From the sequence record PX502252.1: a stretch of 44,418 nucleotides of DNA; one strand, 5' to 3'. The notes under the pieces were generated by a model. The model was not told the DNA's origin and searched no databases. It saw nothing but the letters and a program-made list of their open reading frames with translations. The DNA comes from a phage. Shown here piece after piece: positions 98 to 44,350 of this stretch (positions within the stretch are counted from its first letter, which is position 1; each line of letters opens with the position of its first letter). The position numbers and the translations under genes were made by a program.

Positions 98-113
98 GTC
101 TCACATGTGAGAC
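98..113. promoter_or_regulatory. 16-bp perfect palindrome GTCTCACATGTGAGAC (site 1 of 7), immediately upstream of a phage promoter
   Basis: Sequence is its own reverse complement; recurs at 281, 2649, 3757, 8492, 24999, 38880 (variants). Confidence 0.7.
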
Positions 114-280: not shown

Positions 281-296
281 GTCTCACATGTGAGAC
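281..296. promoter_or_regulatory. 16-bp perfect palindrome GTCTCACATGTGAGAC (site 2)
   Basis: Exact copy of the palindrome, 5 bp upstream of promoter at 302. Confidence 0.7.
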
Positions 297-481: not shown

Positions 482-2470
482 ATGGCTATTATTCAGAATG
501 TACCGTGTCCTGCCTGTCAAAAGAATGGACATGATGTTACCGGCAACCATCTCATGATCTTTGATGATGGTGCTGGCTATTGCAACCGTGGTCACTTCCA
601 CGATAACGGAAAGCCATACTACCATAAGCCCGAAGGTGGTATCGAGATAACCGAGTTGCCTATTACTGGCAATATCAAATATACACCTTCTCAGTTCAAA
701 GAGATGGAGAGGGAAGGGAAGATAAGCGACCCTAAGCTACGCGCCATCGCACTAGGTGGTATGCGTATGAAAGACCGTTGGGAGGTTATGAATGAGCAAG
801 AAAGGGCAGACCAAGAAGCAGAGTGGAAACTCGATGTTGAATGGTTCCTCACGCTTAAGCGTAAGAACCTTGTATCCCGACACATTCGCGGTGACATCGC
901 AGCACTATATGATGTGCGAGTGGGCCATGATGAAGATGGAAGAGTCAATCGTCACTATTATCCACGATTCGAGAAGGGTGAGCTAGTAGGCGCTAAGTGC
1001 CGTACATTACCTAAAGATTTTAAGTTTGGTCACTTAGGTAAACTCTTTGGTATGCAAGACCTTTTCGGGATGAATACTTTGTCTCACGTGTTAGACAAGG
1101 GAAGACGAAAGGATTGCTTACTTATCGTAGGCGGTGAACTTGATGCACTAGCAGCACAGCAGATGCTTCTTGATTCTGCCAAGGGTACTAAGTGGGAAGG
1201 CCAGCCTTATCATGTATGGTCTGTCAATAAGGGTGAGTCTTGCCTCGAAGAGATAGTGCAAAACCGTGAGCACATCGCCCAATTCAAGAAGATTATCTGG
1301 GGCTTCGATGGTGATGAGGTAGGGCAGAAGCAGAACCAGCAAGCGGCTCGCCTGTTCCCCGGCAAATCCTATATCCTTGAATACCCTTCTGGTTGCAAAG
1401 ATGCCAACAAGGCATTGATGGCTGGCAAGGCTAAAGAATTTGTGGATGCTTGGTTTAATGCAAAGTCATCTGATGAAGTCTTTGGTAGCCAGATTAAATC
1501 TATCGCATCTCAAAGAGATAAGCTCAAGGCTGCACGTCCAGAACAAGGGCTGTCATGGCCTTGGCCTAAGCTAAACAAGGTAACGCTGGGTATCCGTAAG
1601 AACCAGCTTATCATTATAGGTGCAGGCTCTGGTGTTGGTAAGACAGAGTTTCTCCGTGAAGTAGTTAAGCACCTCATTGAAGAACACGGTGAATCTGTAG
1701 GCATCATTTCTACAGAAGACCCGATGGTCAAGGTGTCCCGTGCTTTTATCGGCAAATGGATTGATAAGCGTATTGAGTTACCGCCGACCAACGACCCGAA
1801 AGAAGATGGATACCGTGAGGTATTCGACTATACAGAGGAAGAGGCTAATGCTGCCATTGATTATGTAGCTGATACAGGGAAGCTATTTGTGGCTGACCTA
1901 GAGGGTGATTATTCAATGGAGAAGGTAGAGCAAACTTGCCTAGAGTTTGAGGCTATGGGTATTTCTAATATCATCATTGATAACTTAACGGGGATTAAAT
2001 TAGATGAGCGTGCTTTTGGTGGGAAGGTTGGTGCACTTGATGAATGCGTCAAGCGGATTGGTACTATCAAAGACCGACACCCAGTTACTATATTCCTTGT
2101 ATCACACCTTACACGTCCTCCGGCAAACCGTACCCAACACGAAGAAGGTGGCGAGGTTATCCTTTCTGACTTCCGAGGCTCAGGAGCTATCGGATTCTGG
2201 GCATCTTACGCCTTGGGGATTGAGCGTAACACAAGAGCTGAAACGCTTGATGAAAGGACTACCACGTACATCTCATGTGTCAAAGATCGTGACCAAGGTA
2301 TCTACACAGGAACCAAAGTCATGCTTAAGGGTGACATTCAAACCGGACGTTTGAGAGAACCACAGGCTAGAACAAGGTCATTTGATACAGGTGAAGCAAG
2401 GCAACAAGAAGTACCGGATTTACCGGACACTATAGAAGAGACAACCTTTGATGATGAACAGGAGTTTTGA
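482..2470 (+). CDS. DNA primase/helicase (T7 gp4-like)
   Basis: N-terminal Cys4 zinc ribbon (CPACQ...CNRGH), helicase Walker A GAGSGVGKTEF, acidic C-terminus ending DDEQEF; 662 aa. Confidence 0.95.
   Translation: MAIIQNVPCPACQKNGHDVTGNHLMIFDDGAGYCNRGHFHDNGKPYYHKPEGGIEITELPITGNIKYTPSQFKEMEREGKISDPKLRAIALGGMRMKDRWEVMNEQERADQEAEWKLDVEWFLTLKRKNLVSRHIRGDIAALYDVRVGHDEDGRVNRHYYPRFEKGELVGAKCRTLPKDFKFGHLGKLFGMQDLFGMNTLSHVLDKGRRKDCLLIVGGELDALAAQQMLLDSAKGTKWEGQPYHVWSVNKGESCLEEIVQNREHIAQFKKIIWGFDGDEVGQKQNQQAARLFPGKSYILEYPSGCKDANKALMAGKAKEFVDAWFNAKSSDEVFGSQIKSIASQRDKLKAARPEQGLSWPWPKLNKVTLGIRKNQLIIIGAGSGVGKTEFLREVVKHLIEEHGESVGIISTEDPMVKVSRAFIGKWIDKRIELPPTNDPKEDGYREVFDYTEEEANAAIDYVADTGKLFVADLEGDYSMEKVEQTCLEFEAMGISNIIIDNLTGIKLDERAFGGKVGALDECVKRIGTIKDRHPVTIFLVSHLTRPPANRTQHEEGGEVILSDFRGSGAIGFWASYALGIERNTRAETLDERTTTYISCVKDRDQGIYTGTKVMLKGDIQTGRLREPQARTRSFDTGEARQQEVPDLPDTIEETTFDDEQEF
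2418..2440 (+). promoter_or_regulatory. SP6-type phage promoter embedded in 3' end of primase/helicase gene (ATTTACCGGACACTATAGAAGAG)
   Basis: Full consensus match; in-frame encodes LPDTIEE. Confidence 0.65.
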
Positions 2471-2648: not shown

Positions 2649-2664
2649 GTCTCACATGTGAGAC
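2649..2664. promoter_or_regulatory. 16-bp perfect palindrome GTCTCACATGTGAGAC (site 3)
   Basis: Exact copy; intergenic. Confidence 0.7.
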
Positions 2665-3755: not shown

Positions 3756-3780
3756 TGTCTCACGCGTGAGACAGCCTTTT
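3756..3780 (+). terminator. Palindrome variant TGTCTCACGCGTGAGACA followed by GCCTTTT (site 4); hairpin plus T-run
   Basis: 18-bp perfect palindrome with centre CGCG instead of ATGT, then T-tract. Confidence 0.5.
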
Positions 3781-3897
3781 ATCATATTGATTGGAGGTGC
3801 ATTATGCCACGTGATTATGATTCTGATTGGGACTACTATGACTCAATGAATCCAAAACCCGAACGTTCAAATGATTACTACGAAACAGAGGCAATGT

Positions 3898-8491: not shown

Positions 8492-8507
8492 GTCTCACGT
8501 GTGAGAC
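8492..8507. promoter_or_regulatory. Palindrome variant GTCTCACGTGTGAGAC (site 5), 15 bp upstream of phage promoter
   Basis: Same arms GTCTCAC/GTGAGAC with centre GT. Confidence 0.65.
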
Positions 8508-8522
8508 AAATCGGTGTCCGGT

Positions 8523-8545
8523 ATTTACTGGACACTATAGAAGAG
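8523..8545 (+). promoter_or_regulatory. SP6-type phage promoter (ATTTACTGGACACTATAGAAGAG)
   Basis: Full consensus match. Confidence 0.8.
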
Positions 8546-11795: not shown

Positions 11796-12299
11796 ATGTC
11801 ACACTATGAATGTAAGAAGTGTCATAAGCGTTATGATTACTGTACTTGTGGTCAAGAGAAAACATCTTTTAAAGTTGGAGACAAGGTAATTCGTAATGAA
11901 AAAGATTCGATTCCTTGGAATCAATACTGCAAAGAAGCTGGTATTGACCCTGATAGCCCTGTAACCATAGATGATATTGATGGCATTAACTTGTGCTTTC
12001 GTGAGGTGAGGGGTACAGGTTGGGATTCCAAAAAATTCAAACTTGCATCTGATAAGTTAGACAACAATATGGTAACTCAGCCTAAGCACTACGAGTTCTT
12101 TGATGGCGTAGAGGCAATCACTATCATTGCCCGCAGTATGACTGAAAAGCAATTCGCTGGGTACTGCATGGGTAATGCCCTTAAGTATCGCCTGCGTGCA
12201 GGTAAGAAGTTCAATACTGAAGAAGACCTGAAGAAAGCAGACTACTACAAAGAGCTATTCCAGAAGCACCGTCACGAATGTATTGATGAGGATATTTGA
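11796..12299 (+). CDS. DUF3310-like protein with N-terminal Cys-rich zinc ribbon (167 aa)
   Basis: GGAGGA 6 nt upstream of ATG 11796; CKKCHKRYDYCTC; C-terminal HYEFFDGVEAI...GNALKYRLRAGKK...EDLKKADYY resembles DUF3310 signature. Confidence 0.7.
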   Translation: MSHYECKKCHKRYDYCTCGQEKTSFKVGDKVIRNEKDSIPWNQYCKEAGIDPDSPVTIDDIDGINLCFREVRGTGWDSKKFKLASDKLDNNMVTQPKHYEFFDGVEAITIIARSMTEKQFAGYCMGNALKYRLRAGKKFNTEEDLKKADYYKELFQKHRHECIDEDI

Positions 12300-22038: not shown

Positions 22039-24981
22039 ATGGCAATTGAACGTCAAGCTGTACAAGGTTTAGAAAGAGTACAGTCAAGGGGCGCGCCAAC
22101 ACCTATGTCTTTCACACCACGACAAGTGAGTATCTCAGGGGGCGCTGATGCCTCCGGTAGTAGATTTTTGGAAGACTTAGTAAACGCCGCAAGTAGTGTG
22201 GCTGATGTCACTACTGCTATCCTTAATCAGCAAGTAGAAGACGATAAGGTTCGCCAGATGGATAGGGCTTTGTCTGGCATGATGCCTTCTGAGGATGCCA
22301 CGGTAGGCGGTGCTCGTGCTCATATGCTGGTTAGTTTACAAAATGATGTAATCGCACAGACAACTGCGCTACAAGCAGAAGCACAGCGATTTCAAGGTAG
22401 TGACGAGGATTGGGAAAACTATGTAGTTCAATCTCGTAATGAGGTACAAAATAGATTATGGCAAAGTTATCCAGAGCTTCGTGGTGACAAAGATTCTATG
22501 AGGCTTGTCACTAACGCGTTCATGGAGCAGCAACCTAGAATTACTGCAACTAGAGCAGAGGCTAAACTTCGTCAAGAAGAAGAAGCACGAATGCAATCTA
22601 TGCAGTCTCGTATTATCATGGCTACAAGGGACGTAGCGCCAGATGCCACTGGTGCAGCTCTTATCCAGCTACAAAAAGAAGCACTGGCGATGGGTCTTAG
22701 TAAACCTGAGTTTGATCAAATGGTTGCTAAGATTGCATCTGAAAGAGCGGCAGTAGGAGATGATAGTCTTATTCAGGGAACCAAGGCATTGGTGGATGAT
22801 AAGGGTGTCTCTTTGTATGACCGTGTTGGTGCTTTGCAAACTGGAGAAATTCAAGCTAACAGAACTTGGGCTGCTCAGAATCAGGTTGCCCTCTTCGAGA
22901 AGAAAGATGCAGCTATAAAGGCATTCGATGCAGGGCAACTTACTCGCGAAGAGTTACTTCAGGTAATGCAGAATCACAATGAATTGACTGGTGGCACTGC
23001 TTGGTCTGATAGCGAGATCAAGGCTATCTTCGATAGGCAAGCTAAGGTTAATGCAGAGAAAGCAAAGCTCGAAGATCTTATTGCACGAGGTGAATCTGGG
23101 TCGCCTTTAGGCTTACAGGACATTAGTAAGGATGACAGAAAGACATATGCTGAAGCCTTAGTTAGTACCTACACTAAGCTGGCAGAAGATGAAATTGCTC
23201 GTACTGGTGCAACGGGAGAACAGGCTGAAGCTATTCGCGGTAGGTATGAGCAGATGCGTTATCTTAAATTGGGTCAACAGCTTATTGAAGACCCGATCAT
23301 TAAGGAAAGGTATTCGTCGCTTATGCAGCTATCCTCTGCCAACCTCAAGGATATGAATGTTGAACCTGAAGCACTGCAAACTATCATGCGAGCACGTGAT
23401 TCTATTCCAGAGGATGCACGTCGTGCTGTTATGGGAGACAAAGAATATGCCTTTGTTGAGAACTATGACTTAGCAACTCGCATGGGATATAACACAGGTC
23501 AAGCTATTGAGTTTGCACAGAATGCCTCTCGCGGCGAGAAATTACAAGGTTCTGTGCTCAAAGAACTTAATGATGATGTAGATGGAGTAGTTAGTGACAT
23601 TGCAGGAGGTAGCTGGCTCACTTTTGGTGATAACATGAGTGAAATGGGACGTGACATTATGATGGAGGAGGCAAGTACAATTGCTAGAGCAATGAAGGTT
23701 GCAGGCCATAATAATGACACTATTAAGCGTCACCTTAAATCCTATCTTACAAGCCAGTATACACAATTGTCAGAAGGTTTCTTTACTCAAGGTGTTCTTG
23801 TAAAAGGAGACATTCGTACATTAGGGGACACTATAGGAGTAAACCAAGGAGACGTCCCAATGGCTCTCCGTCAGTACCTAGATAATAACAAACAAGCTCT
23901 ACTAGATGCATCAGGTGGGTTAGAGGAAGGCGACCTGTATTTTGATGTAGATGCGCAGCGTGGCCTCTTTACTATACGTGCAGGCTCTGGTCGTGTGCCT
24001 GTTACACAGGCAATGCCTTTGTCTGAAATCAAAGGTCAATCCTTGCTTAAGCAACGGTATGATGCAGAGGTTAAAGCACGTGATGAAGGGCGTAAGAATT
24101 TTGAAGCACAACAAATGCGAATGTGGGGTGCAGGTGGATATCAAGCACAGCCACCTGCAAAGACTACAGCCAAAACTGTAGGCTCACGTGGTATTGCTGA
24201 CTTCTTAATGTCTCCCGCCTTTGCATCAGGTGAAAGATTGCCAGCAAACTTTGAGTTTGGCTATAAGAGGAATAATATGGACTTTTATAACTATGTGGCT
24301 AAGACTGAGAATAGCGCCAATGTAGGGTTCGACCGAGTAGCGGGAGTTTATACACCATACAAAGATGCACATGGTCAGTCTGTAGGTTATGGTCACTTCC
24401 TTACTGCTGAAGAGAAGAAGAACGGATACATTATGATTGGTACAGAGAAAGTGCCATTCACTCCGGGGCAATCTCAATTAACACCAGAACGTGCCATGCG
24501 CCTCCTACAGCAAGACTTGAAGAGCCATGTGCCAAGCACTTCAGGGTGGGCTGTTCCCTTCGAAGAGATGCACCCAGGTGTTCAGCGTGGCCTTATGGAT
24601 TTGTCCTATAACTTAGGTAAAGGAGGCATCCAGAATGCTCCTAAGGCATATGCTGCGTTTAAGGCTGGCAAGTTTACTGATGGCTTTATCGAGATGTTAT
24701 CTACTGCATCTACTGAAGGTAAACGTAGCACTGGGTTGTTGGTTCGTAGGGCAGAAGCATATAATCTTGCCCAGAGCGGAGGTGCTGTTCCTAAGATTAG
24801 TGAAGTAGAGACACGAGCAGATGGGTCCATGTATGTGAAGTTTGCAGGTCAGATGTCAGAGGCTTTCGTAAGTAAATCAATCTATAATCAGATTGGTAAG
24901 GATGGGTGGATGCAAGTGTACCCTCCAAAACAAGGTGCGCTTGCACCTAACACTCAGGTTGGTAGAATCAAACTAAGCTAG
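22039..24981 (+). CDS. Internal virion protein with C-terminal T4-lysozyme-like (GH24) muramidase domain
   Basis: 980 aa; segment E...YTPYKDAHGQSVGYGHFLT matches the E/D/T catalytic region pattern of T4 lysozyme (YKDTEGYYTIGIGHLLT). Confidence 0.8.
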   Translation: MAIERQAVQGLERVQSRGAPTPMSFTPRQVSISGGADASGSRFLEDLVNAASSVADVTTAILNQQVEDDKVRQMDRALSGMMPSEDATVGGARAHMLVSLQNDVIAQTTALQAEAQRFQGSDEDWENYVVQSRNEVQNRLWQSYPELRGDKDSMRLVTNAFMEQQPRITATRAEAKLRQEEEARMQSMQSRIIMATRDVAPDATGAALIQLQKEALAMGLSKPEFDQMVAKIASERAAVGDDSLIQGTKALVDDKGVSLYDRVGALQTGEIQANRTWAAQNQVALFEKKDAAIKAFDAGQLTREELLQVMQNHNELTGGTAWSDSEIKAIFDRQAKVNAEKAKLEDLIARGESGSPLGLQDISKDDRKTYAEALVSTYTKLAEDEIARTGATGEQAEAIRGRYEQMRYLKLGQQLIEDPIIKERYSSLMQLSSANLKDMNVEPEALQTIMRARDSIPEDARRAVMGDKEYAFVENYDLATRMGYNTGQAIEFAQNASRGEKLQGSVLKELNDDVDGVVSDIAGGSWLTFGDNMSEMGRDIMMEEASTIARAMKVAGHNNDTIKRHLKSYLTSQYTQLSEGFFTQGVLVKGDIRTLGDTIGVNQGDVPMALRQYLDNNKQALLDASGGLEEGDLYFDVDAQRGLFTIRAGSGRVPVTQAMPLSEIKGQSLLKQRYDAEVKARDEGRKNFEAQQMRMWGAGGYQAQPPAKTTAKTVGSRGIADFLMSPAFASGERLPANFEFGYKRNNMDFYNYVAKTENSANVGFDRVAGVYTPYKDAHGQSVGYGHFLTAEEKKNGYIMIGTEKVPFTPGQSQLTPERAMRLLQQDLKSHVPSTSGWAVPFEEMHPGVQRGLMDLSYNLGKGGIQNAPKAYAAFKAGKFTDGFIEMLSTASTEGKRSTGLLVRRAEAYNLAQSGGAVPKISEVETRADGSMYVKFAGQMSEAFVSKSIYNQIGKDGWMQVYPPKQGALAPNTQVGRIKLS

Positions 24982-24998: not shown

Positions 24999-25014
24999 GT
25001 CTCACATGTGAGAC
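24999..25014. promoter_or_regulatory. 16-bp perfect palindrome GTCTCACATGTGAGAC (site 6), between internal virion protein genes
   Basis: Exact copy, flanked by T/A extending palindrome to 18 bp. Confidence 0.7.
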
Positions 25015-25048: not shown

Positions 25049-28000
25049 ATGGTTGATAGTATTAACCAAAACTGGGTGGCGGTGACTCAACGCAAGTTAC
25101 CGCCTACCTTCTCTCAAGTTGCTGAAGCCGAACGTAGGGTAGAAGACCAGAGAGCTAAGGATAAAGTATTTCAAACAGCAATAGAAAGTGAGTGGGCTTT
25201 GTACGGTGGACAACGTGCCTATGAACGCCACACTACAGAGTTTACTGAACAAGAAGGTTATGAAGTACCTGAATCAACTAAGGATGAACTATCCAAGTTG
25301 TATGGGTATGAAATAGCGCAAGACATAGTTAAGAATGTGAAGTCTCCAGAAGAGTTGCAATTCCGTATGTCTAATGCTGCTGCTGATAAAGACAGAGCAG
25401 ACATCTTAGCACGTAATGGTTTCACAGGTTTTAGCGCACAGATTGCTGCTGGCATTCTTGACCCTGTAGGTTGGGCGGCTTCTCTAGTAGCTGCACCTGT
25501 AGCTGGTGCTGTCAAAGTAGGTCGTCTAGGTAGGATTATCAAGACGGCTGCCTTATCTGGTGCTGAAAATGCTGCATTAGAAGCTGTGCTTGCACAAGGT
25601 GATTACCAACGAGGTGTCGATGATGTACTGGCTGCTGCCGGGTTTGGTATGATTATGGGCGGTACTATTGGCGCTGCAACTAGGGAACGCATAGCCAGTG
25701 CTGGTTCTCGTACAGCGGCAGAGAGAGCAGAGGTTGTATTTGATGACTTGGACACCGTAGTAAAAGGTGCTGATGAGTTTGACTCGTCTGCTGCTCGTGC
25801 TGTACGTGAGGCCATGGAGTATGACGCGTATATGGCAGCACGTAATTATGAACCACTTCGTGCAAGAGAGGTGGATGCAGATATGGCAATTCTATCTCAC
25901 ACAGACAACTTGAAAGCCAATGCGTCGGTAAGGATGAGTGCTAGTGAGAAAGGACTACTGAAGAAACAGATACGCCAACTGGAAGCAGAAGCAGCCACAC
26001 TTAAGGGGAAGAAGATAGATGCTGTAGCAGAGGCTGCCGCCGCTAAGGGTGCACCTAAATCTGCTGCGGACAGATTGGATTTAGATGTTCAGAAGAAAGC
26101 ACTGGCACGTAGATTCGATGAACCACTTGCTGATTTACAAGCGCGTCTAGATGAGTTGAATGCCAAGTTATCTCGTGCGAACAATGTAGGTAAGGCTAAG
26201 GAGGAGCTTAAGAGATTCTCATCGCTGTCCCGTGAAGATCAAATAAAGGAACTAGGTTTAGACGCACCAATGCGTAAGGTGGAGATGACCCGTGCTGTAC
26301 GCGATGCAGTAGCTGCAATCCGTGCCGAACGTAAGAAGACACCTACCGAAATACATGCTGGACAAGTTGCAGAAGAGGCAATCAAACAAAAGGCAGATGA
26401 CTCTATTGGTGCTAAACGTGTTGAAGGTTCAGAGATTGCAGGCGAGCAGTTTGACTTATCTAAAAACATGGAAGAGCTTATGGACGACTTGGCACGAGAA
26501 GCATATCAGTCAGATGTGCGGCCTATTAATCTTAAGGGTCTAGGTTCGGTGTCTTCTGTGATTCTTAACTCAGAGAACCCTGTGTTCCGAGGTCTAGGCC
26601 TTCGTCTGCTTGAAAATGCTCAGGGTGGTGCATATCAAGGTAAGACAGCTTCTATCTTATCAGATGTGTATGGCAACCTTATTCGTCATGCAGAACGTAA
26701 CAGGTACAATGATGGTTTCTCTCAATTCATCAAAGATAACAACCTGCGTGCAGTAGATTATCTTAATCCTGCAACGACACGGGATTTCAATAATCAGATT
26801 TATACAGCAATTGTTCGTGGCATACCAGAAGATACACCTCGTGGTGTTAAACTGGCAGCCGAAGGTATTGCTGATAAACTCAAGAAAGCACTTGAGATTC
26901 GTAAGCAAGCAGGAGAGCATGGATTCGAGGATGTACAATCTGCTAAGGATTACATCCCTGTTATCTATGACGGTATCAAAATCACAGAGGCAGTTAACAA
27001 GCTAGGTAGCAGTGAAGCTGTCATACACTTGCTGTCTAAAGGTTATCAGACAGGCAAGTACAAGCTTGGCAAGAAAGCTGCTGATGCACTAGCCAAAGTC
27101 CAGTATATTCGCGCATCTGACTCTACCCTCTCTAGTCGTGTTGCATTCGATAGAGTGGTATCCCAGCAGCAGCAGGTTCAGTTGATTGAGGATCTGAAGA
27201 AAGCAGGAGTACCAGATCGTATCATTGATAATTTCATTGAAGGTACGGAATTAGCAGAAATGGCTGAATCGGTATCCAATCGAGCTAAAGCCAGTATGGG
27301 TATTAATACGCAAGCCGAATACGGTGGTTTGAAGGTGCAGGATTTGCTTAATACCAACGTAGGTGAGCTAACTGAGAACTACGGCAAAGAGGCAGCGGGT
27401 GGTGCTGCATTAGCTGCTATGGGTTTCCCTACTCGCCAATCTGTGCTGAACGCAATAGATGCCGCAGAACGCGCAGGCCGCAATATGGCGGGGTCAAATG
27501 CTAAGGCAATCAAACAGCTTAGGTCTGAGGCAGAAATGCTAAGAGATGCCGTTAAGCTTATTTACGGCAACACTATAGACGCCGACCCTAACTCTGGAAT
27601 TGTCAGGGGCACTAGACGTGTCCGCGAGATTACAGGCTTGTTACGATTAGGCCAAATGGGCTTCGCTCAGATACCCGAACTGGCACGTGCAATCTCTAAG
27701 ATGGGGCTAGGGACTGTGCTGAAGTCTGTACCTGCCACTAAGTTCTTACGTTCGAGAGCGGCTCGTAAAGGTGGCACGGCTCAGGGTGAGCTGCTTGAAC
27801 CTGAACTGCGGGAAATGGAGGAACTCTTAGGCTATATCGGGGAAGATAACTGGCTTACAGGGTGGAACGTCCGTCATGATGAGTTCGGAGAAACTGCTGA
27901 TAACCTAGGTAAGCTGTCCGCTATTATTGATAATGGCTTGGCTATGGGTAGTAGAATCAACACAATTCTCTCTGGTTTTAAAGCAGTACAAGGTGGTTCA

Positions 28001-28852
28001 GAGAAAATTGTAGCTCGCTCTATCAATAAGAGACTAAAGCAACATTTGATGGGTGAGCGACAGCTACCCAAAGCAGACCTTGAAGAAGTTGGCCTAAGTG
28101 AAGATGTCATGAAGAGACTTAAACGTCACTTTGATGATAACCCAATGTACGCTGATTACAACGGTGAAAAAGTTCGTATGATGAACTTTGATGCTATGGA
28201 GCCAGATCTGAGAGAAACAGTAGGTGTTGCTGTGCGAAGAATGTCAGGCCGTCTTATTCAACGTAACTTCATTGGTGATGAAGGTATCTGGATGAACAAA
28301 TGGTGGGGTAAAGCATTAACTCAGTTTAAGTCATTCTCTATCGTCTCTATTGAGAAACAGTTAATCCATGATTTACGAGGTGATAAGATTCAGGCTGCAC
28401 AGATACTTGCATGGTCTACTTTACTAGGTTATGCATCTTATTCACTACAGATGCAGCTGCAAGCGATTGGTAGGGAAGATAGAGACAAGTTCTTGAGGGA
28501 TAAGTTTGACACACAGAACATCGCTATGGGTGTCTTTAATAAACTCCCACAAGTTGCAGGCTTCGGTCTTGCTGGTGATGCTTTGGCAACCTTTGGCCTA
28601 ATGCCAGACTCCATGATGCAAGCACCGGGACGTATGGGCTTCCGTCAGCAAGGATTTGGTGATTTGGTAGCAGGTGCTGGTGTAATCAGTGATACAGTTA
28701 ATTTGTCACAAGCACTGGTTAAGTATGCCAGTGGGGATGATGATGTCTCTACTAGGCAGTTGGTGGACAAGGTGCGTCGCCTTGTTCCTTTGGCAAATAC
28801 TATTGGTGTAGGTCAGATGACTAAAGCCAGTGTAGACTTATTGGAGGATTGA
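25049..28852 (+). CDS. Internal virion (core/ejection) protein, T7 gp16-like
   Basis: 1267 aa; size and position. Confidence 0.85.
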   Translation: MVDSINQNWVAVTQRKLPPTFSQVAEAERRVEDQRAKDKVFQTAIESEWALYGGQRAYERHTTEFTEQEGYEVPESTKDELSKLYGYEIAQDIVKNVKSPEELQFRMSNAAADKDRADILARNGFTGFSAQIAAGILDPVGWAASLVAAPVAGAVKVGRLGRIIKTAALSGAENAALEAVLAQGDYQRGVDDVLAAAGFGMIMGGTIGAATRERIASAGSRTAAERAEVVFDDLDTVVKGADEFDSSAARAVREAMEYDAYMAARNYEPLRAREVDADMAILSHTDNLKANASVRMSASEKGLLKKQIRQLEAEAATLKGKKIDAVAEAAAAKGAPKSAADRLDLDVQKKALARRFDEPLADLQARLDELNAKLSRANNVGKAKEELKRFSSLSREDQIKELGLDAPMRKVEMTRAVRDAVAAIRAERKKTPTEIHAGQVAEEAIKQKADDSIGAKRVEGSEIAGEQFDLSKNMEELMDDLAREAYQSDVRPINLKGLGSVSSVILNSENPVFRGLGLRLLENAQGGAYQGKTASILSDVYGNLIRHAERNRYNDGFSQFIKDNNLRAVDYLNPATTRDFNNQIYTAIVRGIPEDTPRGVKLAAEGIADKLKKALEIRKQAGEHGFEDVQSAKDYIPVIYDGIKITEAVNKLGSSEAVIHLLSKGYQTGKYKLGKKAADALAKVQYIRASDSTLSSRVAFDRVVSQQQQVQLIEDLKKAGVPDRIIDNFIEGTELAEMAESVSNRAKASMGINTQAEYGGLKVQDLLNTNVGELTENYGKEAAGGAALAAMGFPTRQSVLNAIDAAERAGRNMAGSNAKAIKQLRSEAEMLRDAVKLIYGNTIDADPNSGIVRGTRRVREITGLLRLGQMGFAQIPELARAISKMGLGTVLKSVPATKFLRSRAARKGGTAQGELLEPELREMEELLGYIGEDNWLTGWNVRHDEFGETADNLGKLSAIIDNGLAMGSRINTILSGFKAVQGGSEKIVARSINKRLKQHLMGERQLPKADLEEVGLSEDVMKRLKRHFDDNPMYADYNGEKVRMMNFDAMEPDLRETVGVAVRRMSGRLIQRNFIGDEGIWMNKWWGKALTQFKSFSIVSIEKQLIHDLRGDKIQAAQILAWSTLLGYASYSLQMQLQAIGREDRDKFLRDKFDTQNIAMGVFNKLPQVAGFGLAGDALATFGLMPDSMMQAPGRMGFRQQGFGDLVAGAGVISDTVNLSQALVKYASGDDDVSTRQLVDKVRRLVPLANTIGVGQMTKASVDLLED

Positions 28853-37754: not shown

Positions 37755-37893
37755 GCAGGTTAATATCTTAGTTTACACAAGGACAGACCTATGATAGCTC
37801 ACAGCACACCCCTGAGTGCCGCTCTGGATTCTATGAATTGTTCCCTGACTATCTAGGTTTGCTCTTAGTGTATTCCAAAGGAGGTCACATGTA

Positions 37894-38154
37894 ATGTTGG
37901 TTGTATCTAGTAAGAAGAAGCAGAGTGAAATGGATAAGATAGTTCAGACTGGCCTTGCTGCTAAGTCTGGTCAACCTCTTAATACTGGAACTGGTTCAAT
38001 TGACAAGATTGTTGAAACAGGCAAACAGGCCATGTCTGTTGGGTTGGACAAGAGTGAAAGGAAGCAGGCTGAGTTCAATAAGATCATTGAGTTCGGTAAG
38101 GAAGCTAAGAGGAAGTTCTTAAGGCCGTCTGCGGTAGAACCAGTAAGACACTAG
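37894..38154 (+). CDS. Small protein (86 aa) with three internal [DN]KI[VI][QE]xG repeats
   Basis: AAGGAGG SD; repeats DKIVQTG, DKIVETG, NKIIEFG; last gene before repeat-dense terminal region. Confidence 0.5.
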   Translation: MLVVSSKKKQSEMDKIVQTGLAAKSGQPLNTGTGSIDKIVETGKQAMSVGLDKSERKQAEFNKIIEFGKEAKRKFLRPSAVEPVRH

Positions 38155-38159
38155 GAAAC

Positions 38160-38900
38160 ATCTTAGTGTTGTACAAGGAATAACCAAAGTCAAAATTTTG
38201 ATGTAGGCGTGTGTGAGGTGTCTCGCCCTCGCCCTCGCCGGGATGTCCCCATAGGGTGGCCTGAGGGAATCCGTCTCCGACGGGCAGGGCTGATGCACTC
38301 CTTGTACTAGCTTAGTAGTACACAAGGGATGACCGTACTAGTTAGCTGGTACAGCCTAGTCTTTGCTCATGTACTAGCAAGGTGGAACGCCGGAGAACGC
38401 CTAGGACGGCCTAGGGATGGCTTAGTGGTGGACAAGGTGATTGCCTTAGTGAAGCCTCTTAGTGCATTCCTGAGGCTATTCAGGGCCATTCCTGAGCGTT
38501 TGACAGGGTGGGCGTGGGTGGGCTATCTGTTCGTTTCGTCGCTGGCGCTCCTCACTTCGTTTCGCCTAGCGCTCCACTCACAAGCCTGACGTGTACCTTA
38601 GTCACTACCTTAGGTTGTTCCTTGATGGATAGCTTAGGTTAACCTTAGTGGATTGCCTTAGTTAAAGCCTTAGTGCTTCACTTAGTATCAGCTTAGTAGT
38701 GTACCTTAGTCAGTCTTAGTGTTAGACCTTAGTGACTACATAGCTACGCTATAAGATGCAAATAGGTCGCGGTCGGTAGACCGCTAATAAGAAGTAATAG
38801 TAATAAGATGCAGTAGGAGGAACACCAGAAACCTAGTCAGCCTAGCCTATCCTAGCTCTGTATCTATTGCGTTTCCTTAGTCTCACATGTTAGACAACCT
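38160..38900. repeat. Non-coding, repeat-dense genome-terminus region (GC-rich block then array of about 11 CTTAGT/CCTTAGT units); probable site of terminal repeat/concatemer junction
   Basis: CTCGCC x3, TACTAG x3, ATTCCTGAG x2, TTCGTTTCG x2, then CTTAGT repeats every 10-14 bp (38590-38750); no SD-led ORFs; analogous to T7 terminal-repeat heptamer arrays. Confidence 0.6.
38880..38895. promoter_or_regulatory. Palindrome variant GTCTCACATGTTAGAC (site 7, one mismatch)
   Basis: 15/16 match to the recurrent palindrome. Confidence 0.5.
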
Positions 38901-38962
38901 AGGTTTATCATAGTAGTTGTGACATGTATCACATAAATAATCTATCTTAGTGAAACTTAGTG

Positions 38963-38991
38963 TTGACACAGGCAATCAACAGGTATACATT
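38963..38991 (+). promoter_or_regulatory. Candidate host sigma70 early promoter (TTGACA - 17 bp - TACATT)
   Basis: Perfect -35 hexamer, 17-bp spacer, -10 with 3/6 match; positioned at start of early region. Confidence 0.4.
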
Positions 38992-39212
38992 AGCAATCAC
39001 TGAGGCGGACCTAGCAAGCTGCCTCAGGTTATAAGCAGGAGAATTGATGCGTAAGCCGTAGCTAGCGGATGTAGTCGCATGAAGGCTTGAGTAAGGGGCC
39101 GTTTAATACCTTCTTCTTCTGGAGACAAAGCTTATAATACCGCTCTTTAACAATTTGCTTAGTGTAACCTATGTATGCCGTGGTTAATTACTTATTGAAT
39201 GAGGTATTAACT

Positions 39213-39290
39213 ATGGGTAAGTTCCTTGCTGGTTTCATCCTTGCCACTGCTATCTTTGATAATGCAGCATTGGCTCTGGGTTTGTATTAA
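39213..39290 (+). CDS. Tiny hydrophobic peptide (25 aa)
   Basis: GAGG 8 nt upstream; MGKFLAGFILATAIFDNAALALGLY. Confidence 0.3.
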   Translation: MGKFLAGFILATAIFDNAALALGLY

Positions 39291-39311
39291 TAGACACAAG
39301 AGGGATTAACT

Positions 39312-39422
39312 ATGAGTTTAGCGACAACGAGTTACGAAGAATTATATGAAACCTACTACAACGCATTGGATGAAGGAGAAGAAGCATTATCCTTTGCTGA
39401 GTTTATGGAGGCTTTATCATGA
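39312..39422 (+). CDS. Small acidic early protein (36 aa)
   Basis: AGAGGGA SD; stop overlaps next start (ATGA). Confidence 0.4.
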   Translation: MSLATTSYEELYETYYNALDEGEEALSFAEFMEALS

Positions 39423-39601
39423 TTCTGAATAACCGTGAACTATCCGTTCTCTTCACCTTGTTATGCTATCTGATATATAGAAATGAGTCACTCAGTGATG
39501 ATGAGTTGTCTTTGTATCACCGCTTTCTTAACGATGGTTGGGTGGATACATTAAACCAGAAACGTGACTTGATGAAGGAGCTAACCAATGTATCAGCATG
39601 A
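39419..39601 (+). CDS. Early hypothetical protein (60 aa)
   Basis: ATGA-coupled to upstream ORF. Confidence 0.5.
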   Translation: MILNNRELSVLFTLLCYLIYRNESLSDDELSLYHRFLNDGWVDTLNQKRDLMKELTNVSA

Positions 39602-39812
39602 AGTTTTCTTTGAATCAGCCAGCGAAGCTATTCGCTTCTTTGAGGACATGCTGCGAAATGGTGTAGGTGTGCATGTACATAGCTTTCTACTAGATTATGA
39701 CACTGAATATCACCGCGTTACCTTGGTGTCTGAGTACGACCATCAAACGATTACCGAGTATCTAGGTAGCGAAGATTATGATTACGACCAAGTAATCACA
39801 ACAAACCTATAA
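39588..39812 (+). CDS. Early acidic hypothetical protein (74 aa)
   Basis: GAAGGAG 7 nt upstream of ATG. Confidence 0.6.
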   Translation: MYQHEVFFESASEAIRFFEDMLRNGVGVHVHSFLLDYDTEYHRVTLVSEYDHQTITEYLGSEDYDYDQVITTNL

Positions 39813-39991
39813 ATTAACTATTGACAGCCACGGCATACAAGGTTACATTAAGCATCAAGACGGCGACGTCTTTAAACATCCCGCTCTTTAACAATTTGGA
39901 TAGTCGCTTCTTAGTCTGGATAGGTTAAACCTAGGAGATTCTCTTGAGTCTCCTATAATGTAACCTAACTAACTAAATGAGGATTAATAAC

Positions 39992-40345
39992 ATGGCTATG
40001 TCTAATATGACTTACTCTCAGGTTTACAACACCGCTCACGCTGCATTAGTTGAACGTATCTGGGATGATGCTATTGATTGTATTGATAACGCACATGATG
40101 CAATCCATGAGGCGGCGGATAGGGCTGTACCAATCTATTATGCTGACATCTTCTCGGTGATGGCGAGTGAAGGCATTGATCATTTCTTCGAAGACTCCGG
40201 CCTGATGCCAGACGCTAAGGATGTAACGGTAGTATTGCAAGCCCGTATCTATGAGCAACTCACAATTGATCTGTGGGAACGTGTTCAGGATATGATTGAT
40301 GCATACATCGACTCCGCCGAAGATTTAGAAGAAGAGGAAGAATAA
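39992..40345 (+). CDS. ocr: Ocr-like DNA-mimic anti-restriction protein (T7 gene 0.3 homologue)
   Basis: 117 aa starting MAMSNMTY; shares HDAIH...[33 protein letters not shown]...[15 protein letters not shown] and acidic C-terminus with T7 Ocr as I recall it. Confidence 0.75.
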
Positions 40346-40346
40346 G

Positions 40347-40460
40347 ATGGAAAAACAATACAATTTCATCTTTTCAGACGGTGTGACCTTAAAATGTTCC
40401 TTGCGATTCGCACAGATTCGCGAGGAAGTGCTAGGAACTACATACAAACTATTTAGCTGA
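40347..40460 (+). CDS. Small early protein (37 aa)
   Basis: ATG 2 nt after ocr stop, GAGGAAG upstream; 3' end overlaps phage promoter. Confidence 0.35.
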   Translation: MEKQYNFIFSDGVTLKCSLRFAQIREEVLGTTYKLFS

Positions 40461-40473
40461 CACTATAAGAGAG
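40451..40473 (+). promoter_or_regulatory. SP6-type phage promoter variant (ATTTAGCTGACACTATAAGAGAG)
   Basis: Core TGACACTATA conserved; +1 region AAGAGAG shifted by one. Confidence 0.55.
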
Positions 40474-40533
40474 GGTTTAACAGGGTGCTCTTGCGAGAGT
40501 GCCCGATTAAATCAACTTAACGAGGTGTTAAAT

Positions 40534-40710
40534 ATGAAATACATACTGATTGCTATGTTTTCTGGCTTCATTGGCTATGCTGGTGCTTCTTATGACAACT
40601 ACAGAAGTAAGCAATTGGCTGCTGAAAAGTGGGATAAAACCTACTTTGCTTGTATGAAACAAGGTAATTTGATGCAAGATTGCATACTTAAAGCGCACAG
40701 CGAAGAGTGA
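40534..40710 (+). CDS. Small early protein with N-terminal hydrophobic signal/TM segment (58 aa)
   Basis: GAGG 8 nt upstream; MKYILIAMFSGFIGYAGA...; three Cys. Confidence 0.55.
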   Translation: MKYILIAMFSGFIGYAGASYDNYRSKQLAAEKWDKTYFACMKQGNLMQDCILKAHSEE

Positions 40711-40774
40711 TGAGCCTATAGCCTACTTAAGTGGGCTATGTGAACATCATTCATTAACTCAAAAGGTGACTATT

Positions 40775-41659
40775 ATGACTACTGAAAACACCCTCCTGTC
40801 TGTTCGTGAAGCTGCAACCGCTGAGATCAAGCAACACTTAGACAATATCGGCACTTCTTACATCAAAGTTGGCGCTTGTCTTAATGAGTTACGCGGTGAC
40901 TTTGAAGGTCAAAAAGACTTTTTGGCTTATGTAGAAGCAGAAATTGGAATCAAGAAAGCACAATGTTACAAGCTGATGAGTGTAGCCCGTGTCTTTGAAG
41001 GCGATGATCGCTTTAAAGGCGTGGCGATGCGTGTAATGCTGGCACTTATTCCTTTCGCTGATGAAAATATCATCATGGAGAAAGCCGCAGAACTTGCCGC
41101 AGCGGGCAAGCTGGACACTAACGCCGTGAACGCCCTGATTGAGCCTAAGAAAGAGCCAAAGTCTGAGACGGTACAACCCAAGGCTGAGCCTGTAAAACCG
41201 CAGGAGAACGCGACTGCGTCCGCAGAATCACAGGAAACGCAAGCGCCGCAGGAAGTGCCGCCAGCAAGTGAGTCTGATGACGACGAATCAGCACCGTGGG
41301 AAGAGGAAAGCAAGCCGGAAGCGCCTAAGGCCGCGCCACTGGATAACACGGCTAACACTGAGAACGCCGCCATGTCTGGCCTGCTGGCACAAATTAAGTC
41401 ACTGACTGAGCAATTACAGGCAGCTAACGACCGCATCGCCGCCCTAACCAGTGCACGCGAAAGCAAGAAAGCCGCCGCTCCTATGCTCCCGCAATTCAAA
41501 TCTTCTTGCTTTTACGCTCGCTTAGGATTGAGCGCTGAGGAGGCAACGAAGAAAACAGCGGTGAACAAGGCACGCCGCGAACTGGTTAAGCTGGGATATG
41601 GTGAAGGCCATGAGGCATGGGCTTTAATCTCTGAGGCAGTAGAAGAATTAACTAAGTAA
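40775..41659 (+). CDS. Early protein (294 aa), two domains joined by acidic P/E/A/K-rich low-complexity linker; function unknown
   Basis: Position of T7 gene 0.7 but no kinase motifs recognised; ATG 40775 preferred over GTG 40766. Confidence 0.7.
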   Translation: MTTENTLLSVREAATAEIKQHLDNIGTSYIKVGACLNELRGDFEGQKDFLAYVEAEIGIKKAQCYKLMSVARVFEGDDRFKGVAMRVMLALIPFADENIIMEKAAELAAAGKLDTNAVNALIEPKKEPKSETVQPKAEPVKPQENATASAESQETQAPQEVPPASESDDDESAPWEEESKPEAPKAAPLDNTANTENAAMSGLLAQIKSLTEQLQAANDRIAALTSARESKKAAAPMLPQFKSSCFYARLGLSAEEATKKTAVNKARRELVKLGYGEGHEAWALISEAVEELTK

Positions 41660-41722
41660 CCTTATCGGTGGCATCTTCTTAGGTGTCACCTATTAAGGTT
41701 TCTTTCACTAGGAGTAAACAAG

Positions 41723-44350
41723 ATGCAAGATTTACACGCTATCCAGCTTCAGCTTGAAGAGGAAATGTTTAACGGCGGTATTCGTCGCTTTGAAGCAGAC
41801 CAACAACGCCAGATTGCATCAGGTAATGAATCCGATACGGCATGGAATCGTCGCCTATTGTCGGAACTTATCGCACCTATGGCTGAAGGTATTCAGGCTT
41901 ATAAGGAAACCTACGAAGGCAAGAAAGGACGCGCACCGCGTGCACTGGCTTTCATTAACTGCGTAGAGAACGAAGTGGCAGCATATATCACGATGAAGAT
42001 CGTAATGGATATGCTTAACACTGATGTAACCTTGCAAGCCATAGCAATGAATGTAGCTGATCGCATCGAAGACCAAGTACGCTTCAGCAAGCTGGAAGGT
42101 CACGCCGCCAAATACTTTGAGAAAGTAAAGAAGTCGCTTAAGGCAAGTAAGACTAAATCATATCGCCATGCGCACAACGTAGCGGTGGTGGCTGAGAAGT
42201 CAGTAGCTGACCGTGACTCTGATTTCTCTCGCTGGGAAGCATGGCCTAAAGATACCTTGCTACAAATCGGTATGACCTTGCTAGAAATACTGGAGAATAG
42301 TGTATTCTTCAATGGTCATCCTGTTTTCCTCCGCACCTTGCGCACTAATGGTGGTAAGCATGGTGTTTACTACTTACAGACCAGTGAACATGTAGGGAAA
42401 TGGATTACAGCATTCAAAGAACATGTAGCGCAACTAAGCCCAGCGTATGCACCTTGCGTTATACCTCCACGTCCGTGGGTTTCTCCTTTTAATGGTGGAT
42501 TTCACACTGAGAAGGTGGCAAGCCGCATCCGTCTAGTTAAAGGAAACCGCGAGCACGTCCGCAAGTTAACCAAAAAGCAGATGCCAGCGGTTTACAAGGC
42601 TGTTAACGCTTTGCAGGAGACTAAATGGCAGGTTAATAAAGAAGTCTTGCAGGTAGTAGAAGACGTTATCCGTCTCGACCTTGGCTATGGTGTACCTTCA
42701 TTTAAACCACTCATCGACCGCGAGAATAAGCCAGCTAACCCAGTGCCGTTAGAATTCCAGCACTTGCGAGGCCGTGAGTTGAAAGAAATGTTAACGCCGG
42801 AACAATGGCAAGCCTTCATTAACTGGAAAGGTGAATGTACCAAGCTGTATACCGCAGAGACTAAGCGCGGCAGCAAGTCGGCGGCAACCGTTCGCATGGT
42901 AGGGCAGGCCCGTAAATACAGCCAGTTTGACGCTATTTATTTTGTATATGCACTGGATAGCCGTTCACGCGTTTATGCGCAATCTAGCACGCTCTCACCG
43001 CAATCAAACGACTTAGGCAAGGCGCTCCTACGGTTTACCGAAGGGCAGACTATAAACAGCGCTGAGGCGCTTAAGTGGTTTTTGGTGAACGGGGCGAATA
43101 ACTGGGGTTGGGATAAGAAAACCTTTGACGTGCGCACCGCTAACGTGTTGGATGGTGAATTCCAAGACATGTGCCGCGATATTGCAGCCGACCCGCTGAC
43201 CTTTACTCAATGGGTAAATGCTGATTCTCCTTACGGTTTCCTTGCATGGTGCTTTGAATACGCGCGTTATCTAGATGCGCTGGATGAAGGCACGCAAGAC
43301 CAATTCATGACGCACCTACCAGTACACCAAGATGGTAGCTGTTCCGGCATCCAGCACTACAGCGCTATGCTACGCGACGAAGTCGGTGCTAAGGCGGTAA
43401 ACCTTAAACCATCCAACGAGCCGCAAGACATTTATGGCGCGGTTGCTCAGGTTGTTATCCAGAAGAATTACGCCTACATGAATGCAGATGATGCGGAAAC
43501 TTTCACATCTGGAAGTGTAACCCTTACAGGTGCAGAACTGCGCAGCATGGCTAACGCGTGGGATATGATTGGGATCACTCGCGGCCTGACCAAGAAACCC
43601 GTTATGACCCTGCCATACGGCTCCACACGCTTAACCTGCCGTGAATCGGTGATTGATTATATCGTTGATTTGGAAGAAAAAGAGGCACAACGAGCTATCG
43701 CCGAAGGGCGGACGGCGAATCCTGTGCACCCTTTTGATAATGACCGTAAAGACTACCTGACACCGGGCGCGGCATATAACTATATGACTGCTCTCATCTG
43801 GCCTTCCATCTCTGAGGTTGTGAAAGCTCCGATAGTTGCCATGAAAATGATTCGCCAGCTTGCACGTTTCGCAGCTAAGAGGAACGAAGGATTAGAATAC
43901 CCCTTACCGACTGGCTTCATCTTGCAACAAAAGATAATGGCAACCGATATGCTTCGCGTATCCACTTGCTTGATGGGTGAAATCAAGATGAGTCTCCAGA
44001 TTGAAACAGATGTAGTTGATGAAACGGCAATGATGGGTGCGGCTGCTCCTAACTTCGTGCACGGTCATGATGCTAGCCACCTGATTCTGACTGTATGTGA
44101 CCTAGTGGATAAAGGTATTACATCCATTGCAGTCATCCATGATTCTTTCGGCACTCATGCAGGACGTACCGCAGACCTGCGGGATAGCTTAAGGGCAGAA
44201 ATGGTTAAGATGTATCAAGACCATAATGCCTTGCAAAACCTGCTGGATGTGCACGAAGAACGTTGGTTAGTAGATACCGGAATCCAAGTACCAGAGCAAG
44301 GAGAGTTTGACCTTAACGAAATCTTAGTATCTGACTATTGCTTCGCATAA
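41723..44350 (+). CDS. Single-subunit DNA-directed RNA polymerase, SP6-type
   Basis: 875 aa; N-terminus [32 protein letters not shown] and long stretches match SP6 RNAP as I recall it; motifs [14 protein letters not shown] and VHDSFGTH; cognate promoters throughout genome. Confidence 0.97.

Follow-up and report, generated by a model that had tools for sequence, protein, structure and literature searches.

The phage sequence PX502252.1 (44,418 nt, the whole of which is referred to as the window) carries a block of early genes between its left-end repeats and the gene for an SP6-type RNA polymerase (RNAP). The span under study, 39213–41659, runs exactly from the start of the open reading frame (ORF) A25 to the stop of G294 and holds seven unassigned ORFs and ocr. 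The analysis concerns the coding capacity of this block and, in particular, the predicted DNA-binding protein G294 and a dispersed palindrome that may be its target. The type of the RNAP ORF, together with the match of region 38600–41720 to 104 phage records at 80%–99% identity (nearly all Vectrevirus or other SP6-like phages of ∼44 kb), identifies the window as a circularly permuted K1E/K1-5-like Vectrevirus genome of the SP6 supergroup. The early (class I) genes of such a phage make up the 2.4-kb block. A preliminary description of the window had recognized an early region of the T7 supergroup, and this is confirmed, the gene set being of K1E/SP6 type. In K1E, the equivalent block is annotated with genes 1, 1.5, 2, 2.5, 2.8, 3 (ocr), 4, 5, 6, and 7 (RNAP), all of which except ocr and RNAP are labelled "hypothetical".

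Table 1. Positions of genes, signals, and palindrome copies in the window
Feature	Position	Strand	Remarks
A25	39213..39290	+	25-aa hydrophobic peptide, one predicted membrane helix; Shine-Dalgarno GAGGT at 7 nt
B36	39312..39422	+	36-aa very acidic peptide, net charge -9.5; phrog_2061; patchy
C60	39419..39601	+	60-aa core early protein, K1E gene 1 equivalent; phrog_9275
D74	39588..39812	+	74-aa acidic protein, net charge -12, K1E gene 2 equivalent; phrog_6403
ocr	39992..40345	+	117 aa, DNA-mimic anti-restriction protein; PF08684, phrog_2568
E37	40347..40460	+	37-aa protein, K1E gene 4 equivalent; phrog_11746
F58	40534..40710	+	58 aa, signal-peptide-like/membrane-anchor N terminus, two conserved cysteines; rare, variable slot
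G294	40775..41659	+	294 aa, K1E gene 6 equivalent; phrog_4571
Predicted recognition helix of G294	40955..40996	+	codons K61–F74; AlphaFold2 helices 46–57, 61–74
RNAP gene	41723..44350	+	SP6-type, single-subunit, 875 aa; downstream edge of early block
Early promoter P1	38963..38991	+	sigma-70-type, TTGACA-17-TACATT; consensus match only
Early promoter P2	39821..39849	+	sigma-70-type, TTGACA-17-TACATT; consensus match only
boxA, first copy	39142..39153	+	rrn-type, GCTCTTTAACAA; leader of first early operon; exact match
boxA, second copy	39883..39894	+	ocr leader; exact match
First phage-RNAP promoter core	40454..40467	+	TAGCTGACACTATA; overlaps E37 stop
RNA hairpin before ocr	39901..39986	+	long, irregular, RNase III site-like; -32.7 kcal/mol, z -4.9
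Palindrome, left-end copy	38880..38895	.	GTCTCACATGTTAGAC, 1 mismatch; ∼70 nt upstream of P1
Palindrome	98..113	.	GTCTCACATGTGAGAC; 5 nt upstream of core TACCGGACACTATA (119–132), first phage promoter past RNAP gene
Palindrome	281..296	.	GTCTCACATGTGAGAC; just upstream of second tandem phage promoter TTTACCGGACAGTATAG
Palindrome	1081..1096	.	1 mismatch; inside primase/helicase ORF 482–2470
Palindrome	2649..2664	.	intergenic; flanks lengthen hairpin, CTTATTAA tail after
Palindrome	3757..3772	.	intergenic; upstream of 845-aa ORF 3871–6408
Palindrome	8492..8507	.	18 nt upstream of phage promoter core at 8526
Palindrome	24999..25014	.	intergenic; between late ORFs 22039–24981 and 25049–28852

All eight ORFs were found on the + strand, with the sizes and places given in the preliminary description. 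The ATGA coupling that it claimed for two ORFs is found at the junction of B36 and C60, and a 14-nt overlap joins C60 to D74. A Shine-Dalgarno match lies 5–8 nt upstream of each start chosen; the longer mechanical starts at 39977, 40525, and 40766 lack one. A codon-by-codon comparison with 24 related loci gave ratios of non-synonymous to synonymous change (pN/pS) of 0.09 for A25, 0.28 for both B36 and C60, 0.40 for D74, 0.30 for Ocr, 0.08 for E37, and 0.21 for G294, to be compared with 0.08 for RNAP; the constraint on E37 thus equals that on the polymerase. Synonymous differences exceed non-synonymous ones by 15 to 4 in A25 and by 326 to 93 in E37. The DNA of F58 is nearly invariant, and its three synonymous and zero non-synonymous differences are too few for a selection test. 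Absence from all relatives had been named as an outcome that would count against the ORFs; when this was checked, they proved to be kept in related loci or phage records. Shine-Dalgarno sites, purifying selection, and retention in relatives together show, at the level of sequence, that all seven unassigned ORFs are genuine genes and not chance ORFs.

The distribution of the genes divides the block in two. C60, Ocr, E37, and G294 are present in 24 of the 24 related loci and D74 was detected in 17, so that C60, D74, ocr, E37, and G294 are shown to form the conserved early core of the lineage. B36 (9 of 24 loci), F58 (3), and A25 (2) are shown to hold variable slots. In GenBank phages, matches were found in 135 records for E37, 102 for C60, 214 for G294, and, among 50,697 records, 7 for F58. 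C60, D74, E37, and G294 correspond to K1E genes 1, 2, 4, and 6, occur in the same order before the RNAP gene, are 78%–97% identical to them, and fall into PHROG families without an assigned function (Table 1); A25 and F58 belong to no PHROG family. K1E genes 1.5, 2.5, 2.8, and 5 are missing from the window, which has A25, B36, and F58 in their stead. The ORFs had been put forward as the most likely place for undescribed functions. As genes, they are mostly catalogued already as hypothetical, C60, D74, E37, and G294 under the K1E gene numbers, and the part of the claim that stands is that their functions are unassigned: none of the seven has an assigned function in Pfam, NCBIfam, or PHROGs, and none falls into a known anti-defence family in Pfam or PHROGs.

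Fold and relatives of G294

The AlphaFold2 model of G294 (predicted local distance difference test score, pLDDT, 83, with both folded regions >90) consists of a helical domain (residues 10–122), an acidic disordered linker (123–195), a long helix (196–234), and a small helical domain (235–294). The preliminary description of a two-domain protein without a kinase motif is borne out by these two folded regions and their linker and by the lack of a kinase match. The N-terminal domain was modelled with a helix-turn-helix (HTH) DNA-binding fold and the C-terminal one with the helical fold of a J domain. Residues 60–74, which include the predicted recognition helix, read KKAQCYKLMSVARVF; the codons of K66 and S69 lie at 40970–40972 and 40979–40981. 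Inspection of the long helix revealed a leucine-zipper-like heptad pattern (L204, I208, L211, L215, A218, I222, and L225). Structure prediction thus shows G294 as a KorB/ParB-type HTH domain joined by an acidic linker to a zipper-like helix and a J-like domain that lacks the His-Pro-Asp (HPD) motif.

G294 has no detectable sequence similarity to KorB of plasmid RK2, ParB, Spo0J, SopB, or VirB. It differs from them in lacking the ParB/Srx N-terminal domain and the KorB C-terminal dimerization domain, in place of which it has a coiled coil and the J-like domain, and its DNA binding is predicted. No ParB/Srx cytidine triphosphate (CTP)-binding domain was found: the HTH domain begins at residue 10, which leaves no space for one, and Pfam gave no match of this kind. 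An exhaustive HMMER search yielded 135 clusters of relatives at 50% identity. Of 118 relatives scanned against Pfam, 21 hit PF11300 (DUF3102) at E ≤ 0.001 (best E 1.2e-10; for P0166, 26.7 bits against a gathering threshold of 24.4) and seven hit PF00226 (DnaJ), for which the best of 10 individually scanned relatives reached 26.0 bits against a gathering cut-off of 27.8. Membership of G294 itself in DUF3102 is therefore only transitive, through its relatives' sequences. A connection of DUF3102 with plasmid leading regions was considered and rejected, as the N-terminal domain of G294 found no match in 72,556 plasmids by tblastn.

J and J-like domains are protein-interaction modules, and the HPD tripeptide between helices II and III of a J domain is needed for the stimulation of Hsp70. 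The family profile of G294 hits many J domains in the PDB (E 9e-4 to 0.4). The HPD motif is replaced by GYGEGHEA in G294 and is present in 0 of 118 relatives; the C-terminal region is therefore J-like, as modelled, and not a canonical J domain. Compared with J-domain proteins, Tim16/Pam16, and Rki of phage RB43, it lacks HPD, its Pfam scores are below the cut-off, and no fourth helix is predicted.

The 214 phage records with G294 are all podoviruses of 43–47 kb with the gene 1–4 kb from the left end. Their hosts include Escherichia, Klebsiella, Salmonella, Proteus, Erwinia, Pectobacterium, and Vibrio, as well as Pseudomonas, Marinomonas, Aeromonas, Shewanella, Ralstonia, and Edwardsiella. Many distant relatives (330–510 aa) have an additional 70–150 N-terminal residues with 'TLK..K' and 'RTK..F', which the window protein does not have. 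The stretch before the J-like domain (residues 235–242, 41477–41500) contains a near-invariant 'LPQF', L238 being kept in at least 90% of the 118 relatives; it may be a domain cap or a short binding motif. Homologues carry a variety of unsupported names in sequence records, among them 'endolysin', 'andolysin', 'late transcription factor VLTF-4', 'periplasmatic protein', and 'putative prolipoprotein diacylglyceryl transferase'.

G294 lies directly upstream of the RNAP gene, like T7 gp0.7, a protein kinase and host shut-off protein, and had been described as occupying the gene 0.7 position. G294 has no kinase domain or motif and no similarity to gp0.7 (no kinase family at E ≤ 1; BLASTP against gp0.7, E 3.1), and an analogue of the 0.7 kinase was rejected. 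Nor is it a positional stand-in for the kinase, as in the locus of a Vibrio phage (L025) a G294 homologue, a further ORF whose kinase-like motif was recognized by eye only, and the RNAP gene follow one another in this order.

The palindrome family and the predicted recognition helix

A symmetric site is the expected target of an HTH dimer, and the window was therefore scanned for repeated palindromes. A 16-bp family, GTCTCAC(A/G)(T/C)GTGAGAC, is present in six perfect copies and two with one mismatch, against 0.15 copies expected and a maximum of one in 100 shuffles. Among the genomes examined, those of the SP6 group and of the Proteus, Pseudomonas, Vibrio, Shewanella, and Erwinia phages, as well as K1E-type loci, have a counterpart of the left-end copy at an equivalent location. 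Two further copies accompany the tandem phage promoters past the RNAP gene; in T7, tandem promoters directly behind the RNAP gene form the primary replication origin. The 845-aa ORF that follows the copy at 3757 is presumably the DNA polymerase, going by its size and position only. Exact palindrome sequences of this family were not found in the literature searched; the original SP6 and K1-5 genome papers could mention palindromes. The candidate targets for gp6 of K1E/K1-5 and of SP6 are GTCTCACATGTGAGAC and GTCCAACGTGTTGGAC.

Whole genomes of other lineages with G294 were then tabulated for repeated palindromes against helix 61–74. All 14 lineages examined with a G294 homologue have at least three dispersed copies of a 16–17-bp GTC...GAC palindrome. 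T7 and K1F have neither a G294 homologue nor a dispersed palindrome family, the sole comparable palindrome of T7 being one terminal-repeat element counted twice and those of K1F three unrelated single copies. The arm of the palindrome varies with the helix. K66 occurs with GTCTCA(C) in K1E-like phages, Erwinia Era103, Pseudomonas Alpheus, Vibrio VEN, a Vibrio AS51-like contig, Shewanella phiY2, and Aeromonas MJG; N or H66 occurs with GTCCAAC in the SP6 group, Proteus PM116, Pectobacterium POP72, and Klebsiella F4M1D; and W63 together with R66 occurs with GTCTAG in Klebsiella RCIP0053. In two Marinomonas phages, a very different helix, SSVSEW (GKSSVSEWCKAARFV), is found with GTTCGAG. Among the window and the 24 close loci, 17 of 17 with K66/S69 use TC or TA at arm positions 4–5 and never CA, and 8 of 8 with N/H66 and N69 use CA or TA and never TC. 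The intermediate arm GTCTAAC is found in both types.

Neighbor-joining trees of RNAP (rooted on T7) and of G294 nest the K1E lineage within the N-type enterobacterial clade, beside SP6. Helix and arm must therefore have switched together at least twice, not counting the Marinomonas and RCIP0053 states, and the co-variation includes a reversal in the K1E lineage. The copy within the primase gene is part of this pattern. Its homologous site in N-type phages reads ATG-TCC-AAC-GTG-TTG-GAC (M-S-N-V-L-D) and the window encodes L-S-H-V-L-D, from which it follows that the palindrome is maintained at the expense of amino-acid changes. By analogy with T7 gene 4B, the ATG of this site in N-type phages might be an internal start.

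A CRP-type site was rejected for the palindrome on its sequence arrangement, as read from the sequence. A promoter-specificity element was likewise rejected because the arms do not follow promoter type: K1E and SP6 have nearly identical promoters and different arms, whereas K1E, Vibrio, and Pseudomonas phages have different promoters and arms that agree. In Klebsiella RCIP0053, at least 17 tandem copies of the 10-bp CTATAGTAAG lie just past the RNAP gene (L039, 6195–6370), near that phage's own palindromes, GTCTAG-N4-CTAGAC.

Small early proteins and transcription signals

Ocr is the only product of the block with a Pfam or NCBIfam match and, on sequence, the only one with an assigned function. 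Its recognition in the preliminary description was correct: it matches PF08684 over the full length of the profile (E 5.5e-42; 142.8 bits, cut-off 25), shares 65% identity with T7 gp0.3, and has a net charge of -23 and an isoelectric point (pI) of 4.05. No essential difference from T7 Ocr was seen, its identity being known here from sequence. Inhibition of type I restriction or bacteriophage exclusion (BREX) has been described for T7 Ocr and, against BREX, for the SP6 homologue Gp5 (PMC11341690). Single-protein sequence searches of NCBIfam and the PDB were uninformative, and, for the small ORFs, a BLASTP comparison with T7 gp0.4, 0.5, 0.6A, 0.7, 1.1, 1.2, 1.4–1.8, and 2 revealed no homology, Ocr alone giving a match.

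A25 (grand average of hydropathy 1.40) was found, among the 24 related loci, only in IMG/VR loci L004 and L005. Its coding body was found in none of 50,697 GenBank phage records; its leader and start site are 98% conserved in 90 of them, and A25 is placed on a duplicated translation-initiation region. D74 exists in K1E-, K1-5-, and SP6-type versions that are homologous over their whole length and very divergent in alignment. It is predicted, with fair confidence, to form a beta-alpha-beta-beta-alpha-beta ferredoxin-like domain (pLDDT 82, predicted template modelling score 0.70, only two of five models agreeing), the best fold matches of the model being CutA and PII-like small trimeric ferredoxin-fold proteins. 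Structure prediction, suggested in the preliminary description as a check, was thus informative for G294, where AlphaFold2 gave the HTH and J-like folds, and pointed to no function for D74, where the fold is generic. For the same reason, and for want of any similarity to Gp2, a T7 Gp2-like inhibitor of host RNAP was rejected for D74. A D74 homologue, AFH19829.1 of phage ACG-C91, was among the 200 accessory genes screened by Silas et al. and is not among the ORFs listed with a phenotype (bioRxiv 10.1101/2023.04.06.535777).

E37 starts 1 nt past the ocr stop, with its Shine-Dalgarno site inside the poly-Glu codons of ocr, and its 135 records are of Escherichia, Klebsiella, Salmonella, Proteus, and Citrobacter phages. 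F58 forms only three clusters among 5.8 billion proteins. The signal-like N terminus claimed for it is present: it reads MKYILIAMFSGFIGYAGA and then S, with K2, a 15-residue hydrophobic stretch (residues 4–18, mean Kyte-Doolittle value 1.79), and AGA-S, and is kept in both of its diverged relatives (71%–74% identity), which also retain the length and both cysteines. There is no lipobox and no Cys before residue 40. K1E gp5 (75 aa) occupies the same slot and is unrelated in sequence; it likewise has an N-terminal hydrophobic helix. T7 gp0.4, gp0.5, and gp0.6 are likewise small and come from equivalent early transcripts, gp0.4 being translationally coupled to ocr, as is E37, and gp0.5 being a hydrophobic peptide, as is A25; no sequence similarity to the small ORFs of the window was found (best E 0.07–9). 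T7 gp0.4 and gp0.6 are inhibitors of cell division and of the cytoskeleton.

Two sigma-70 promoters, each followed by a boxA, would transcribe the early block, joined from 40454 on by a phage-RNAP promoter. The phage promoter core has 13 + strand matches in the window, compared with 1.6 expected for both strands, and its copy at 40454–40467 puts a phage promoter, in addition to the host ones, upstream of F58, G294, and the RNAP gene. BoxA, GCTCTTTAACAA (extended form CGCTCTTTAACAATTTG), occurs once in each leader of a host-promoter early operon and one to three times on the + strand of all 25 related loci, including a Vibrio phage; it is also present at T7 position 813. The boxA copies in these leaders point to recruitment of the host Nus antitermination machinery by the early transcripts. 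In each of the early gaps 39895–39991, 40461–40533, 40705–40774, and 41655–41722, the fold is a long hairpin with irregular pairing (z -4.4 to -4.9 relative to shuffled sequences), similar to the sites between T7 early genes at which RNase III processes the RNA. CTTAGT motifs form an array, exclusively on the + strand, that has 21 copies in 37767–39915 and is densest at 38597–38733; spacing is 10–13 nt for nine copies (mostly 11–13), and the whole window has 55 copies against 29 expected. It resembles the short-repeat arrays beside the T7 terminal repeats. A tblastn search of the whole window found homologues of T7 gp1.1 (350–472) and of the C-terminal part of gp1.7 (12072–12281) and none of the host RNAP inhibitors gp0.7 and gp2. 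Shut-off of the host RNAP, if any, would thus be due to another factor, in this block or elsewhere.

A candidate regulator and its operator

On computational grounds, G294 and the palindrome are best read as a phage regulator and its operator, rather than as part of an anti-defence system, because G294 belongs to the universally conserved core, has a fold of the DNA-binding type, and is matched by a palindrome that varies along with it. G294 would dimerize via its zipper-like helix, and the dimer would bind GTCTCAC-N2-GTGAGAC through helix 61–74. Occupancy of the copies near the early promoters, of those beside the tandem promoters that follow the RNAP gene (where T7 has its primary replication origin), and of those in other gaps would constitute a DNA-binding control layer whose target may be the early-to-middle switch, origin-proximal transcription, or both. 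The direction of regulation can only be guessed: repression of the early promoters, modulation of the first middle promoter or origin, or a roadblock. The J-like domain might conceivably provide a protein contact, with DnaK or another partner. That G294 recognizes the palindrome as double-stranded DNA, possibly alongside an RNA role for some copies, is judged from sequence and model to be evenly balanced. The fuller proposal, that proteins of the K1E/SP6 gp6 type are unrecognized regulators of transcription or replication in which a zipper-dimerized, KorB-like HTH binds the palindromes and the J-like domain engages a partner, is put forward tentatively.

Several observations weigh against this reading. 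The window protein reaches no Pfam threshold (for DUF3102 and kinase families, no hit at E ≤ 1), the fold similarity is moderate, a Foldseek search of the PDB returned nothing below E = 4, and the HTH domain is acidic (pI 5.0). No function can be attached to the J-like domain, HPD is missing in 118 of 118 relatives, and none of the small ORFs gave an informative match. The independent events of co-variation are few, co-variation was scored for G294 alone among the phage proteins, and the arms are 2 to 4 nt apart, depending on the lineage. In Ralstonia Reminis (W63, K66), the palindrome is present only as an imperfect variant, GTCTC-N6-GAGAC, in four to five copies. To the same side belong features of the palindromes that point to RNA: the flanks of the copies at 2649, 3757, and 24999, and of their Proteus, Pectobacterium, and Klebsiella counterparts, extend the stem by G-U pairs; a conserved T-rich tail of the CTTATTAA type follows such copies; and in Proteus PM116, one copy lies within and one just past an annotated rho-independent terminator. 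Because of these flanks, tails, and the annotated terminator, an RNA-level role for some copies is plausible.

The alternative envisaged in the preliminary description is that all seven ORFs, G294 included, are host-takeover or anti-defence effectors acting on host proteins, in which case the palindromes would be unrelated to them. This is possible, if rather doubtful. The genes do lie in an early region beside ocr, B36 and D74 are strongly acidic in the manner of DNA mimics, J and J-like domains serve in protein interaction, and the lack of a detectable gp0.7 or gp2 homologue leaves host-RNAP shut-off to be performed, perhaps, by some early protein. However, C60, E37, and G294 are universal and strongly constrained by purifying selection, which is not typical of accessory genes for counter-defence, the D74 homologue had no listed phenotype in the 200-gene screen, and no ORF belongs to a known anti-defence family. 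For G294, the DNA-binding-like N-terminal domain, with a helix that co-varies with a genomic palindrome, points instead to regulation. What stands of the earlier suggestion concerns the other genes: going by sequence distribution, the patchy profile of accessory anti-defence genes fits only A25, B36, and F58, and D74 diverges fast. Since both are highly acidic, D74 fast-diverging and B36 patchy, these two would be the best candidates for inhibitors of variable host proteins, by weak inference. A25 and F58 are predicted to be directed to the membrane or periplasm and, equally weakly, might act at the envelope, for example in superinfection exclusion.

Less probable still is that the palindromes are RNA-level elements, such as terminators, pause sites, processing hairpins, or 5′ stabilizers, read by a factor other than G294, with the helix match a by-product of shared ancestry and G294 acting on host DNA or on the DnaK system; this is considered unlikely. 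Besides the G-U-extended flanks, the tails, and the PM116 terminator, it would account for the palindrome centre, which varies freely, as a loop might, and for the presence of strong hairpins in other early intergenic gaps. A hairpin kept for its structure only should, however, drift by compensatory change; instead, phages of E. coli, Vibrio, Aeromonas, and Pseudomonas share the same 7-nt arms, even though their proteins are only 34%–39% identical. The promoter-adjacent copies have no T-run of their own and lie downstream of a separate terminator; in Era103 and the Pectobacterium, Marinomonas, and Proteus phages, a separate intrinsic terminator precedes the palindrome behind the RNAP gene, so that the palindrome is not itself the post-RNAP terminator. 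Some copies are inside the primase and RNAP genes, and the arm type switches with the predicted base-contact positions of the sole HTH-type protein that shares the distribution of the palindrome in the genomes checked. Finally, it is highly improbable that some of the smallest ORFs (A25, B36, and E37) are untranslated and owe their conservation to regulatory DNA or RNA. Their very small size, the overlap of a phage promoter with the 3′ end of E37, and the absence of A25 from all GenBank phage records speak for this view, but synonymous differences far outnumber non-synonymous ones in A25 and E37, the frames are open, and the Shine-Dalgarno sites are kept.

The domain set of G294 (KorB-like HTH, zipper, and HPD-less J-like domain), the palindrome family, and the co-variation of the two are new in that they were not encountered in the literature searched, in which no functional studies of K1E, K1-5, or SP6 early genes, of DUF3102, or of phage J-like proteins were found. 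SP6, K1E, and K1-5 are standard laboratory and therapy-candidate phages. To our knowledge, their regulation is usually described as a T7-like RNA polymerase switch, with no site-specific DNA-binding regulator. For host interaction, the present analysis narrows the anti-defence candidates to D74, B36, A25, and F58 and drops the largest ORF. If G294 is a regulator that acts at the palindromes, the conserved palindromes, some of them annotated as terminators, would be explained, and the recognition code could be read from natural variants (K66 with GTCTCAC, N/H66 with GTCCAAC, and W63/R66 with GTCTAG), which form pairs of helix and arm suited to a specificity swap. It would also offer a new control element that could set when early and middle genes are transcribed or could govern origin firing, and SP6-like and Colwellvirinae phages would have an operator-based layer of control that is not part of the T7 paradigm.

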